Below are positions 1,671 to 34,722 of a DNA stretch of 64,000 nucleotides, one piece after another. The translations under genes were made by a program, and so were the position numbers. Position 1 is the stretch's first letter, and the number at the start of each line of letters is the position of its first letter. Location: assembly GCA_013265495.1 (NCBI GenBank), contig MU058065.1, positions 6,386,302-6,450,301 of the forward strand, given 5' to 3'. The stretch comes from Vicugna vicugna (Eukaryota). The notes beneath the pieces were generated by a model, which worked only from the letters and a program-made list of their open reading frames with translations, ran no database searches and had not been told where the DNA came from.

Positions 1671-3696
1671 GGATTTTCCGGTCAAGATGGCAGAGTAGTA
1701 AGGACCATGAGCTCGCTTCTCCTCGCAACTACAGCAAAACCACAACTGACTGCTAAACAACCACTGGGGAAAAAAACAGGCTGGAACTTAGCAAAATAAG
1801 AACTTCACTTGGAAACATAAAGAGGGAACCACAGCAGGATGGTAGGAGGGGTGTGCTCATGATATAATTGGGGCCCATACCCACTAGGTGGGTGACCCAC
1901 AAGCTGAAGAATAATTAAGCTGCAGAGGCCCTCCCACAGGACTAAGAGTTCTAAGCCCCAATTCAGGCTCACCAGCCGAGGTTCCCAGCATTGGGAGGAG
2001 GAGGAGACCACAGGACATCTGGTTTTGAAGGCCAGCAGGGCTTAACTCCAGGAACCCCACAGGATTGGGGAAAACAGGGACTTCATTCTCTTGGGAAGCA
2101 AACACAGAGTCTTGCATGCGCCAGGTCCAAGGGCAGAGGCAGTGATTTCATAGGAACCTGGGCCAGACCTGCCTGTAGGTTTTGGAGGATCTTCTAGGGA
2201 GGTAGGGAATGGCTGTGGCTCAACCAAGGGACATAAAAGCTGGTGGCAGACATTCTGGGAGTGTTCATCTACATGAGCTTTCATGGAGGCTGACATCTTT
2301 ATTGGATCATTAGCACCCCTAGCCCCACCCAACAGCCTATAGACTTAAGGGCTGAGAAGCCTCAGGCCAAATAACATACTGGGTAGGACCACATCCCCAG
2401 CCAACAGCAGACTTCCTGAGCCACAAACAACTCTAGACACGGCCCTACCCACAAGAGGTCCAGGACTAAGGTTCACCCAGAAGTGGGCAGGCACTGAATC
2501 CTCCGGCCAGGAAGCCTGCATAAGCCTCTAGGCCAGCCTCATCCACAGGGGGCAGATACCAGAAATAAAACAACAATCCTAAAGCCTGTGGAAGGAATCT
2601 ACAAACACAGGCCAGACTCTATACTGGGACCAGCTGAACACTGGCCCTTGGGTGACAAGAGAGGAGTATACTACTGGGACATGTAGGATGTCTCCCACAG
2701 AGGGCCACTTCTCCAAGGTCAAGAAACATAAATAACCTACCTAAAAATACAAATAGAAAGACAGACAATATGAGGTGACAGAAGAATATCTCCCAGGCCT
2801 AGGTACAAGATAAAACCCCAGAAGAAGAAATAAATGATGAGGAGATAGGCAATTTATCCAAGAGAGAGTTTAAAGTAAAGAAGTGAAGATGTTTGGAGAA
2901 CTCAAGAGGAGTACAGATACACAGAGCAAAGTTTTTAGCAAAGAGTTGGAAAATATAAAGAATACCCAAACAGAGTTAAAGAATAAAATCACTGAAATGA
3001 ATAACACACTACAAGGAACCAAGAATAGACTAAATGAGGCAGAAGAACAGATCAATGAGCTAGAAGACGTACTAGGGGAAATCACTATTGCGGAATAGAA
3101 AAAAGAATGAAAAGAAAGGAGGATAGTTTAAAAGAACCCTGGGACAACATGAAGCATACTAATATTCACATTATAGGGGTCCCAGAAAGAGAAGAGAGAG
3201 AGAAAGGACGTAAGAAAATTTCTGAAGAAATAATAACTGAAAACTTGGGAAAGGAAACAATCACCCAAGTCCAGGAAGCGCAGAAAGTTACACACAGGAT
3301 CAACCCAAAGAGGAACACACCAAGGCACATAATAATCAAGTTGACAAAAATTAAGGATAAAGAGAAAATATTAAAATTAGAAAGAGAAAAGTAACAAATA
3401 ACATACAAGGGAACTCTGCAGATTTTTCAGCGGAAATTCTACAGGCCAGAAGGGAGTGGCACGATATATTTAAAGTGATGAAAGAGGAAAACTTACAACC
3501 AAGAACACTCCATCCAGCAAGGCTCTCATTCAGATCTGATGAAGAAATCAAAAGCTTCACAGATAAACAAAAGCTGAAAGAATTCAGTACCACCAAACCA
3601 GCTTTACAACAAATGTTAAAGGAACTTCTCTAGTCATTAAACCATAAGAAAAGAGAACAAAAAGAAGAAAGAGAAAAAAAAAAAAAGACCTACAAA
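1671..3696 (+). mobile_element. LINE-1 5'UTR plus disrupted ORF1 (first module of a TSD-bounded composite insertion 1671-5662)
   Basis: Starts with a typical L1 5' terminus (GGATTTTCCGGTCAAGATGGC). ORF1-like peptides at 2883-3098 and 3107-3394 (NIHIIGVPE, RINPKRNTPRHIIIKL). Likely ORF1 ATG at about 2770 and TAG at 3631, with internal stops and frameshifts. Confidence 0.9.
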
Positions 3697-3996
3697 AGAT
3701 TGTTTTGGCACTTCAGGGTCTTTTATGGTTCAGTATAAATTTTGGAATTGTTTGTTCTAGTTCTATGAAAAATGTTGTGAGCATTTTGACAGGGGTTGCA
3801 TTGGATCTGCAGGTTGCTTTGGGTAGTGTGGCCATCTTGATAATGTTGATTCTTCCAATCCAAGAGCATAAGAGATCTTTCTGTTCCTTTGTATCATCTT
3901 CAATTTCCTTCATCAATGTCTTGCAGTTTTCAGAGTATAGGTAGCCTCCCTGGTTAAGTTTATTTCTAGGTATTTTGCTGTTTTTGATGCAATGGA
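3697..3996 (-). mobile_element. Inverted LINE-1 ORF2 fragment
   Basis: Minus ORF 3713-3916 contains CSWIGRINIIKMATLPKA...FFIELEQTIPKF, typical of L1 ORF2 downstream of the RT domain. Confidence 0.85.
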
Positions 3997-4062
3997 AATG
4001 TTTATGCCAGTTATAAAATTCTGGTTTTTAATGTGAAAAGAAAAAGTGAATGATGGGCCACA

Positions 4063-6882: not shown

Positions 6883-7879
6883 AGTGAGTTTCTGTGTGAT
6901 GGAGTATTATGATCCCTGGGATGGCTAACTTCCATAAATAAATACATGGGCACTCCCATCCACAATTTGTTTCTGTGAGTTTGGCTAATGTGGGTCAGTC
7001 CCCAAGAGCCTACCCATGCTGAATATGCTGACAAAATTTAGTTTCTAAACCTGGGAAGCTGACACCTGAAAGCCCAGGCTTAATCAATCTGCCCACCTCC
7101 CTCACTGTCTCTTTTTCCCTTTATCTTATGTCAGACAACCCAGTTAGGGAACTGAGAAGAGTCTCACAAATAACTTTACCACCAGATGTAGCCACTACTC
7201 AGTACCACACACAGCCCTTTGTTTTGGTACATGACATGTATTTATTTGTTAAACATTACAGAAAATTTCTCCTATTCTCAGAATTGTGCCTGCTGCTGGG
7301 AAGTACAGAGCTGGGAAAGACATAAGCCAGCCCTCAGAGCTTCACCATCCAGTATCTAAGCCATATAAACAGGTAATGATCAGAAACATGTGAACTTAAA
7401 TATATAACAGACCTAAAGGGAGAAATAAACAGCAATACAATAACAGTAGGAGACTTTAATACCCAACTTTCATCAGGGGATAGATCATCCAGACAGAAAA
7501 GCAATAAGGAAACATTGACCTTAAATGTCATATTAGACCAAATGAAAGTAACAGACATATACAGAACATTCCACCCAAAAGCAACAGAAAACATTTTCTT
7601 TTCAAGCACACATGAAACATTCTCCAGGATAGATCATATGTTAGGTAAAAAAAACAAACCTTCATAAATTTAAGAAGACTGAAGTCCAATCAGGCATCTT
7701 TTCCCATTCAATGTTATAAAACTAAAAATCAATTGCAAAAATAAAACTGGAAAATTCACAAATATTTGGAGATTAAACAATATGCTACTGGACAACCACT
7801 AGGTCAAAGAAGAAATCAAAATAGAAATTTTTAAGTACCTAAAGATGAATGAAAGTGGAAAACACAACACATCAAAAAT

Positions 7880-8343
7880 TAAAGGAAGGGGTGCCTGGGA
7901 AAAAGGAGACTGGGGCTCCAAATGTCAGCTTGAGGAATTTAAAGCTGATTCCCCAGACCATGCAGGGATTCCCAAGCAGTGGAGTAATTAATCAAACATG
8001 CTTTAAGGGGCACTGATATGGCAATGGTGAGGGGGTAGATTGCAAGGGCAGATCAAGCAGCGAGGGAGATCAAGCAGGAGGGAGCATCCATACATCATCT
8101 CTTCCCAGAGTCATGCAGCTGCTCATGCTGCCAGCCGAGCTGCAAACAAGCAAGGAGGCTGACCTGGTGCTGGAGCTGCTGGAGCTGCTGGAGCTGCTGG
8201 AGATGGAAGTGATATCCTCTGCACTGGGCAGAATAAAGCCTGCCAGGTTCAGAAGGTCATGGATCATCTGGCCTTTGATGCTGATGTCCAGTGGAGAGTG
8301 GGAACAGAGGCTTTGAGGAAAGGATGCAAAGAGTGGTAAAGGC
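7880..8343 (-). pseudogene. TTLL4: Unprocessed duplicate of one TTLL4 exon (copy exon 8164-8310) with flanking intron sequence; source 33897-34338
   Basis: Manual alignment gives 125/138 identities over the exon plus one 9-nt in-frame repeat-unit insertion. The intron flanks also align. Peptide SPLDISIKGQMIHDLLNLAGFILPSAED vs source SPLDISIKGQMIRDLLNLAGFVLPNAED. Confidence 0.95.
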
Positions 8344-8628
8344 CAAAACTTATCAGAAGCAGCAAAAGCAGTTCTAAGAAGGAAGTTCATAGCAATAAAT
8401 GCCTACATTAAGAAACAAGAAAGATCTCAAATAAACAGCCTAACTTTACACCTCAAGGGGCTAGAAAAATAAAAATAAACTAACCTCAAAGTTAATGGAA
8501 GGAAGGAAATAATGAAGACCTGAGCAGAAACAAATAGAGACTAAAAAGGACAATAGAAAAGATCAGCGAAACTATGAGTTGGCTTTTTAAAAAGATAAAC
8601 AAAATGGGCAAACCTTTAGCTAGACTAC

Positions 8629-8629
<1 letters not shown>

Positions 8630-8670
<41 letters not shown>
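8630..8670. repeat. Poly(A) run of about 41 nt inside L1 ORF2
   Basis: Direct reading of the sequence. Confidence 0.95.
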
Positions 8671-8671
<1 letters not shown>

Positions 8672-10166
8672 AGAAATGAAAGAGGAGACATTACAACTGA
8701 TAGCACAAAAACACAAAAAGTCACAAGAAAATATTCTGAACAATTATATGCCAACAACTTGGACAACCTAGAAGAAATGGATAAATTTCTAGAAATATAC
8801 ATCCTATCAAGACTGAACCATGAAGAAATAGATAATCTGACCAGACCAATTACTACTAAAAGATCGAATCAGTCATCAAAACCTCCTAACAAACGAAAGT
8901 TAAAGACCAGATGCCTTCACTGGTTAATTCTTCCAAACATTTAAAGAGTTAATACCAACTCTTCTTAAACTTTTCCAAAAAACAGAAGAGGAAGGAACAC
9001 TTCCAAACTCATTTTATGGAGCCAGCATTTTCCTAATACTAAAACTAGACAAGGACACTACAAGAAAAGAAAATTACAGGCCAATATCCCTGATGAGTGT
9101 AAATGAAAACATCTTCAACAAAATATTAGCAAACCAAATTCAACAATAAATTTTTTTAAAAATACACTATAATCAAATAGGATTTATTCCAGGGATACAA
9201 GGATGGTTTGACATCTGCAAACCAATCAATGTGATATGACACATTAACAAATGAAGGATAAAAATCATATGATCATCTCAATAGATGCAGAAAAGCATTT
9301 CACAAATCCACTTACAATAAAATCACTTATAAAATATCCACTTACAATAAAAACTCTTATAAAAGTGGGTATAGAGAGAATGTAAGTTAGCACAATAAAA
9401 GTCATATATGACAAGTCCATAGCTAATATCATAGTCAATGGCAAAAAGCTGAAGGCTTTTCCTGTAAGATCAGGAACGAGACAAAGATGCCCACTCTTGC
9501 CACTTTTCACCATAGTATTAGAAGTCTTAGCCAGAGCAATTAGGCAAGAATAAGAAACAAAAGGCATTTAAATCAGAAAGGAAGAAGTAAAACTGTCACT
9601 ATTTGCAGATGACACCATATGATATACAGAAAACCCTAAAGACTCCACCAAAAAAAAAAAAGTTACAACTAATAAATGAATTCAGTAAAGTTGCAGGATA
9701 CAAAATCAATATACAAAAATCAGCTGTATCTCTATACATTAATAAAAAACTATTAGAAAGAGACATTAAGAAACACTCTCATTTGCAATTGCATCAAAAA
9801 AAATGCCTAGGAATAAATTTAACCAAGGAGGTGAAAGACCTATATGCTAAAAACTATGATGCTGAAGGAAAAAATTAAAGAAGATACAAATAAATGGAAA
9901 GATATTCCATACTCATAGATTGGAAGAATTAATACTGTTAAAATGACCATACTACCCAAAGCAATCTACAGATTCAATGCAATTCCTACTAAAATTCCAA
10001 TGGCATTTTTCACAGAAATAGAACAGTCTTAAGATTTGTATGGAACTACAAATGACCCTGAATAGCCAAAGTAATCTTGAGAAAGAAGAACAAAGCTAGA
10101 GGCATCATGCTTCCTGATTTCAAAGTATATTACAAAGCTATAGTAATCAAAACAGTATGGTATTGG

Positions 10167-32852: not shown

Positions 32853-34167
32853 CTAAGGCAGGGGGTGGAAAGGGGGCAAAGGGCAAGGTCAGCAGCTTCA
32901 CATCCTGAGGACATGTGGAGAAAGGGTCCAGCCCAGGAAGACAGCTTTCTCAAGAGAAGACAAAGAAGGATGGACAGATGATTGTTACTTGAGTAGATCT
33001 GAGTGCAATGCACTCCACTCAAGTAGTCTATCTGAGACTCAAGTACCATGGAAGAACCAAAAGAGTACAAAGCACACTCTTTAAATTGCATTTTAATGGT
33101 GAAAAAAAAAAAAGAGGACCATGGAATAATTGCTGTATACTTCAGTTCAGTTTAATTTAGTGAACACTTACTAAATATCCAGCTTGGCCCTACTGGCTAC
33201 CTGATTCTGGACAAATTACCTAACCTCCCTGCACCTCAGTTTTGTCATCCACATTACTATAATTACTACTGAGAAAGACAAAAAGATTGCCTCCCAGGAG
33301 CTCACAGAATGGCAAGTGTCAAATGACAGCTATAGCACAGAGCCAAATATAAGTCCATAAGGTATGGTGGGGAAAGCAAGTTTTGTTACCAACAAATTAG
33401 GATTTGAAGTCCAACTCTACAACTTTGTAGCTAAATGACCTTGGATAAATTACTTAATCCCAGTGATTTTCCATTTCCTCATCTGTAAACCAAGGATACT
33501 AATACCAACTTCATGGGGCCGCTATGGGGATAAGCTATAGGTTTTTCCTTAAACATAGCAAGTACTGACTAAATATTAGCTCCCTTTCCTCAAGAGAAGT
33601 TCTGAGTGCTATGGGGGTGTAGAGGAGAGAGACCACACTGAGCTGGTTTCATGAAGATGCTGCCTTCAGGTAGTCTTGGAGGATGGGTCTTGAAGTTACA
33701 ACAGGGAGGCCTGGCTGAAGTGGAATTTCAGAAGGAAGAAACCCCATGAGCAGAGGAGGGGACACTATAGGGGAACAATAAGAGGCAGCGAACGCTTCAG
33801 GGAGGAGACTGGATTAACGGATCCTTAAGAATCCTTCCAACCTTGAGATTCTATGAGTGATTCAATTTGTCAGAGCACAGGAGCTGGGAAGAGGAGTAAA
33901 GAAAGGAATGCCTGGGCCTCAAATGTCTGCTTGAGAAATTTAAAGCTGATTCCCCAGGCCCTAAGGGGACTCCTGAGTAGGGAAGTAATCAACCAAACAT
34001 GCTTTAAAGAGTACTGACTTGGCAGTGGTCAGTGGGTATATTGCAGGGGCAGACTGAGCAGCAAGGGAGACCAAGCAGGAGGGAACGCCCAGACACCATC
34101 CCTTCCCAGAGTCACAACGGAGCCACTCATGCTGACGGCTGAGCCGCAGACAAGCAAGGAGGCTGAC

Positions 34168-34305
34168 CTGGTGGTGGAGCTGCTGGAGCTGCTAGAGCTG
34201 AAAGTGACATCCTCTGCATTGGGCAGAACAAAGCCTGCCAGGTTCAGAAGGTCACGGATCATCTGGCCTTTGATGCTGATGTCCAGTGGGGAGTTGGAGT
34301 GGAGG
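34168..34305 (-). CDS. TTLL4: TTLL4 coding exon 13 (138 nt; source of the copy at 7880-8343)
   Basis: CCCTGAAG|C...CAG|GTCAGC. LHSNSPLDISIKGQMIRDLLNLAGFVLPNAED. Phases 2/2. Confidence 0.95.
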
Positions 34306-34722
34306 CTTCAGGGAAAGGATGCAAAGAGTAATAAAAGCACACTATTTCCAGTCACGTGTCCAACTCAGTGCGAGCCCCATTTACATCCAAACTCATGAGC
34401 ACCATCATGGGGGTCTTCTTGGCCCACAAATAGTGAATAACCTCCCTCAGGGTGGATCCTGCCCATGACCTTGGTTTGAGAGGGGAAAAGTATGCAATAG
34501 GAATCAAGTTCAAAAGAGCAACTTTTAACAGTCTCTCTCCATCCTCAGGGAACCTTGAGATAATGGCAAAGAATAAGGGAATGGGTAAACAAACAGACCA
34601 TGAAGAAAAAAAAAATTCTAGTGAAGGAAAGGTCTTCCCCAAGTCAGCAAGTCTGGAGCAGAAACAGGATCATAAGAATACAAAACAGGTTCTACTGTGA
34701 GTGCTCTGAGAATACCACCTAC

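Follow-up and report, generated by a model that had tools for sequence, protein, structure and literature searches.

We analysed a window of 64,000 nucleotides from Vicugna vicugna (assembly GCA_013265495.1, contig MU058065.1), which is the whole stretch of DNA to which all positions below refer. The window contains the first coding exon of a P450 gene, which we take to be CYP27A1 from its sequence and synteny, and, further to the right, TTLL4 sequence. Exon 2 of the P450 gene lies 16.8 kb to the left of the window, and intron 1 holds a decayed L1 element that is itself interrupted by a piece of TTLL4 (Table 1). In Pfam searches, exons 2 and later of the P450 gene score as p450, and no family match was returned for its first exon or for one fragment of the L1.

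Table 1. Positions of the TTLL4-derived insert, its donor and its host within the window.
Feature	Position	Strand	Remarks
Host L1, 5'-truncated decayed ORF2 with endonuclease-domain remnant at left	7390..10100	+	Weaker homology on to about 11400
Left copy of 9-bp target-site duplication (L1 sequence)	7873..7881	+	Last two bases double as microhomology with donor
Inserted TTLL4 genomic copy	7882..8343	-	Same sense as TTLL4 and CYP27A1, opposite to L1
Copied downstream intron, 282 nt	7882..8163	-	GT donor intact; holds 16-nt ancestral stretch, since lost at donor locus
Exon of the TTLL4 copy, 147 nt (138 plus a 9-nt expansion of a Ser repeat)	8164..8310	-	Own frame open
Copied upstream intron, 33 nt	8311..8343	-	Pyrimidine tract and AG acceptor intact
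Right copy of 9-bp target-site duplication	8344..8352	+	L1 ORF2 resumes here
First coding exon of host P450 gene	14367..14620	-	Intron 1 phase 0, about 31 kb
TTLL4 donor, exon at 34168-34305 flanked by intron	33899..34338	-	Peptide of this exon matches Camelus dromedarius TTLL4 at 100% identity

The host L1 additionally contains a run of 41 A bases within ORF2 (8630-8670), which is likely an expanded internal A tract, and two imperfect tandem copies of a unit of about 30 bp (9305-9364). At 2870-4000 lies a second L1 whose two parts are on opposite strands, first one resembling ORF1 (plus strand), then one resembling ORF2 (minus strand). Its positions 3696-4000 match 10078-9780 of the host L1 in reverse, and it is possibly an inverted or composite element.

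A self-BLAST of the window aligned 7902-8343 to 33902-34338 on the same strand, with 81.9% identity over 447 columns (E 7e-123). Global alignment of the two segments fixed the breakpoints as given in Table 1, yielding an insert of 462 bp and a donor of 440 bp that are approximately 82% identical, with the donor located in TTLL4, 26 kb from the insert. Both alignments agree with a sequence-only reading of this DNA, made before our analysis, which had paired 7880-8343 with 33897-34338 in the same orientation. On the minus strand, the donor reads through 33 nt of upstream intron, then the exon of 138 nt, then 269 nt of downstream intron, so that donor and copy differ in length in the downstream intron and the exon. 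Within the exon 126/138 aligned bases are identical; of the figures in the earlier reading, the 9-nt insertion stands, and the count of 125/138 identical bases is replaced by this one.

The insert lies approximately 480 bp inside the 5' end of the host L1, and interrupts an otherwise continuous ORF2. As an insert-free reference, we used the paralogous empty sites of 29 other L1 copies. The L1 sequence ran through the site uninterrupted in 22 of the 29, consistent with the earlier claim that a continuous ORF2 had been split, and in none of the 29 did such a 9-mer occur more than once within 60 bp, indicating that the bracketing 9-mers are a true target duplication. The two 9-mers differ at one base in nine, making them the near-perfect repeat that had been described, and the 9-mer is absent both from the insert and from the ends of the donor. 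The dinucleotide TA common to 7880-7881 and 33897-33898 forms a 2-nt microhomology at the left junction; at the right junction homology is limited to 0-1 nt. Inspection of both junctions identified no poly(A) at either end of the insert, and the five consecutive A bases found 20 nt in from the left end form part of 16 nt that the donor does not have. With both ends intronic, no spliced junctions and no poly(A), the insert is not a processed pseudogene; the sequence-only reading had rejected an ordinary one on the intronic ends and missing tail, and our inspection and alignment agree on these two points.

We investigated the distribution of the inserted sequence beyond the window. A search of the insert against its own assembly of 2.03 Gb returned four matches, namely the copy, the donor and two microsatellite matches of 47-53 bp. 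The local donor is the sole full-length match besides the copy within this assembly, which may be incomplete; this rules out a closer paralogous donor and bears out the earlier proposal of the local TTLL4 as the lone source. Three genome searches identified no other L1 copy carrying the TTLL4 piece (0/83 independent loci, counted after four duplicate loci were dropped), ruling out capture in a source L1, which the earlier reading had named as evidence that would tell against it. An insertion landing at random in the genome would fall within 26 kb of the donor with a chance of approximately 2.6e-5, indicating that the template was local. As the copy has diverged from the donor by 18%, it cannot be an assembly chimera of the donor. 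We additionally recovered 0.88-0.96 of 48 words sampled from 7840-8400, junction-spanning words not being singled out, in 12 runs of organisms B, C and D that belong to five studies, the possible source study not being one of them. In a fifth organism, one run gave 0.50 of these words and three gave 0.02, and four RNA runs gave 0.31-0.42; we do not take these values to show how widely the stretch occurs or that it is expressed.

These junctions bear on whether RNA or DNA served as the template. After cutting the site, L1 ORF2p might have copied an unspliced nascent RNA of the adjacent locus directly into it by reverse transcription, leaving no poly(A) tail. The RNA would have been either TTLL4 pre-mRNA, with priming at the left end, or an antisense transcript, with priming at the right. 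The 9-bp target duplication is compatible with such an event, as is an AATAAA on the plus strand of the donor at 34330, although no tail follows and this motif ends 3 nt before the breakpoint, rather than 10-30 nt. At the left edge, four T and then G on the bottom strand loosely resemble an L1 endonuclease site, but the nick is offset by one relative to TTTT/A and fits it poorly. Trans-mobilised RNA is not known to prefer landing beside its own gene, which also counts against an RNA template. Reverse transcriptase inhibitors reduced experimental templated insertions, according to the review by Onozawa and Aplan (2016, PMC5110952), which favours RNA, but the templated insertions reported there map to distant regions. 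Taken together, we consider the two variants possible but doubtful. Nothing in the sequence features separates a DNA template from an unspliced-RNA one, which weighs against a repair origin; on balance, a DNA template appears the likelier.

Several known insertions resemble this one in part. Pseudo-ATM, described by Ejima and Yang in 2003, is reportedly a retroposed copy of a single exon with intron flanks and a target duplication, located on another chromosome from its source and at an L1 endonuclease consensus. It would thus share with our insert the one exon with intron flanks and the target duplication, and differ in that our donor is local. Among the templated sequence insertion polymorphisms (TSIPs) of Onozawa and Aplan (PMC5110952), class 1 is described as carrying poly(A) with a signal 10-30 nt upstream and class 2 as having no target-site duplication (TSD), and donors are distant. 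Our insert has a TSD of at least 5 bp without poly(A) 10-30 nt after a signal, so that it departs from class 1 and from trans-mobilised RNA, and with both a TSD and a local donor it departs from class 2. It is similar to the TSIPs in the use of a non-repeat intronic template as a patch, having a TSD as in class 1 together with microhomology and no tail as in class 2, but its donor is local, and it is old and apparently fixed. In the LAIR1 inserts of antibody switch regions (PMC9457163), a break was likewise patched with an exon and the introns on either side of it; in the account given there these inserts are somatic, interchromosomal, spliced and functional, unlike the copy identified here.

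The introns of copy and donor differ by a K2P distance of 0.225 (95% 0.16-0.30, 299 sites) and the exons by 0.094, a lower value (Fisher p 0.007) that would fit a constrained donor exon and a freely evolving copy. At 2.2e-9 per year, the rate used by Pace et al. (PMC2671141), the intron distance corresponds to about 51 million years (37-68), and the rates and bounds tried span 27-100 million years. The copy retains the ancestral Ile and Ser at two sites where camelid TTLL4 has Val and Phe in 13 of 15 listed records from Camelus and Vicugna; all 13 records with the motif have both residues, and the remaining two are without the motif. Thus, the copy predates the camel-alpaca split, unless both sites have reverted. 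The insertion most likely occurred in the germ line before the divergence of camels and alpaca, roughly 50 million years ago, as judged from these distances and residues, and the earlier description of an old event is upheld both by the intron distance and by the changes in TTLL4 that camels and alpaca share. In the donor exon, the Phe of camelid TTLL4 (Camelus and Vicugna) lies at 34198-34206, a position at which Ser is the residue in 116 of 120 listed relatives.

The copy contains 16 nt that are not found in the donor. Four mammalian genomic ORF translations match the copy across this stretch, and three of the four require a five-residue gap against the donor, indicating that the donor lost the stretch later. 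The approximately 15 extra nt of the sequence-only reading are therefore 16 ancestral nt, deleted from the donor afterwards and no part of the insertion event, and their interpretation as a template-switch scar is ruled out. The deletion lies between short direct repeats at 33909-33916 in the TTLL4 intron, and is younger than the copy. The copy keeps the state before this deletion, as a molecular fossil of the stem-camelid TTLL4 intron.

We compared the age of the copy with that of its host. The copy has diverged by about 0.11 per branch (0.08-0.15) and the host L1 differs from the majority of its paralogues by 0.12-0.16, suggesting that the L1 is similar in age to the copy or slightly older. 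Because the two ages overlap, arrival of the L1 before the insert is probable at most, which counts against repair of a resident L1. The overlap would also allow capture during integration of the L1 itself, in which reverse transcriptase or second-strand synthesis would have switched to TTLL4 DNA close by and then resumed on the L1 template 9 nt behind the point it had left. The position of the insert within the L1, and not at its 5' end, argues against this, as does the exon-based branch of the copy (at most about 10 changes in 138), which is lower than the L1 divergence. Nor is there a truncation hotspot at the site: the 5' ends of 6/83 L1 loci that appeared piled up there are an alignment artefact, and when these six loci and five others were re-measured against an insert-free paralogue, the ends were spread over -9...-181. 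We regard capture during integration as unlikely.

Nine of the 42 aligned codons differ between copy and donor, with eight amino-acid changes and one silent change; two of the eight are changes in the donor. The ratio of non-synonymous to synonymous changes gave no departure from neutral (p 0.5-0.7), with few sites contributing. His2 and Arg17, invariant in 120/120 TTLL4 proteins, are both changed in the copy, which shows signs of apparently neutral decay. Both splice sites survive (AG and GT), an outcome expected in 63% of cases for the four core splice bases at this age. The copied exon has phase 2/2 and intron 1 of the host has phase 0, so that inclusion would be out of frame and would reach a stop at codon 18, excluding protein-level exon shuffling into CYP27A1. 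Together with the loss of two invariant residues, this means that the event is not productive exon shuffling, and the earlier proposal of exon shuffling fails in its functional sense.

The copy might nevertheless be a functional exon, shuffled productively into CYP27A1 or used in TTLL4 read-through transcripts, given that it lies in sense, keeps AG, GT and a pyrimidine tract, has a length divisible by three and stays open in its own frame. We consider this very improbable, in view of the phase mismatch with CYP27A1 and its early stop, the altered TTLL4 residues and the frequency with which core splice bases would persist anyway. A further scenario, improbable in our view, is that a repair patch from 26 kb away, possibly templated by nascent RNA, gave rise to an out-of-frame "poison" exon in camelid CYP27A1, which would tune sterol 27-hydroxylase through nonsense-mediated decay. 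If true, this would be a lineage-specific regulatory exon, repair-patched from a neighbouring gene. We identified no sign of function for the copy, and it is probably a functionless accident.

The closest known parallel is found in the repair-mediated duplications (RDs) of Pace, Sen, Batzer and Feschotte (2009, PMC2671141), who looked for transposons into which a stretch of at least 50 bp from one donor had been placed. They report 1,136 events in human, with 824 donors within 5 kb and 58 farther away on the same chromosome, alongside 202 events in cow and 192 in dog. The donor distance is given as 1.2 kb on average and the length as 162 bp on average, with a maximum of 619 bp among proximal and a mean of 302 bp among distant events. 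Three of the 39 proximal events inspected in that paper had junctions with both microhomology and TSD (MH+TSD), and none of the 39 had poly(A). The 5-kb limit of the confident set is described as ad hoc, and some distant events on the same chromosome were considered true RDs. Two copies of intron, full exon and intron are also presented (ACSBG2 exon 7 and C17orf57 exon 20), neither of them reported there as being under selection.

Our insert corresponds to these events in most respects. It interrupts a transposon with more than 50 bp that are absent from the family (22/29 paralogues continuous, 0/83 with the insert), and the search of its own genome, in an assembly that may be incomplete, identified exactly one other copy more than 50 bp away. 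It lacks poly(A/T), and of microhomology, filler, deletion and TSD it has the combination that corresponds to class MH+TSD in Table 1 of Pace et al. It shares with RDs the single donor on the same chromosome and the full exon with intron flanks, and its 462 bp fall within their length range. In contrast to the mean donor distance and the 5-kb cut-off of that survey, the donor lies 26 kb away, in the group termed "distant, same chromosome"; the insert is longer than the RD mean of 162 bp, and lands in a neighbouring gene and not in the same one. The survey took in no camelids. By analogy, the insert appears to behave like an RD, outside the strict proximal set.

We therefore favour, with a probability of roughly two in three, a repair-mediated duplication, in which a staggered break in a resident L1 was patched by copying approximately 460 bases of TTLL4 from 26 kb away, the copy decaying neutrally since. 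The break would have left 9-nt 3' overhangs within the L1. The left 3' end would then have annealed to the donor through the 2-nt microhomology and been extended along it, in the manner of synthesis-dependent strand annealing, before the newly made strand was joined to the opposite end, using 0-1 nt of homology, and fill-in duplicated nine bases. Staggered breakage, donor-templated extension and rejoining would together account for the lone local donor, the intronic ends, the target duplication, the microhomology, the absence of a tail, the loss of conserved residues and the wrong splice phase. A templated insertion at a staggered break had been proposed from the sequence alone, and the 9-bp target duplication, the microhomology and the single local donor are in its favour. 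Against a repair origin, a 2-nt microhomology often arises by chance, and 26 kb is beyond the 5-kb confident RD group of Pace et al. A clean target duplication without deletion is a minority junction in the set reported there (PMC2671141), and is the usual signature of L1.

The event type has already been described by Pace et al. (2009, PMC2671141), and the transfer from TTLL4 to CYP27A1 is a further instance of it; a literature search, with most subscription journals outside its coverage, returned no paper on this locus. The locus provides a clear, datable example of the process, one whose donor distance lies at the upper end for such events, and its importance would rise only if the copy were spliced into CYP27A1 mRNA. 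It shows a route by which a whole exon with its splice sites can enter a neighbouring gene, and why this is usually a dead end, the exon arriving in the wrong phase. The presence or absence of the insert might additionally serve to mark the camelid stem.
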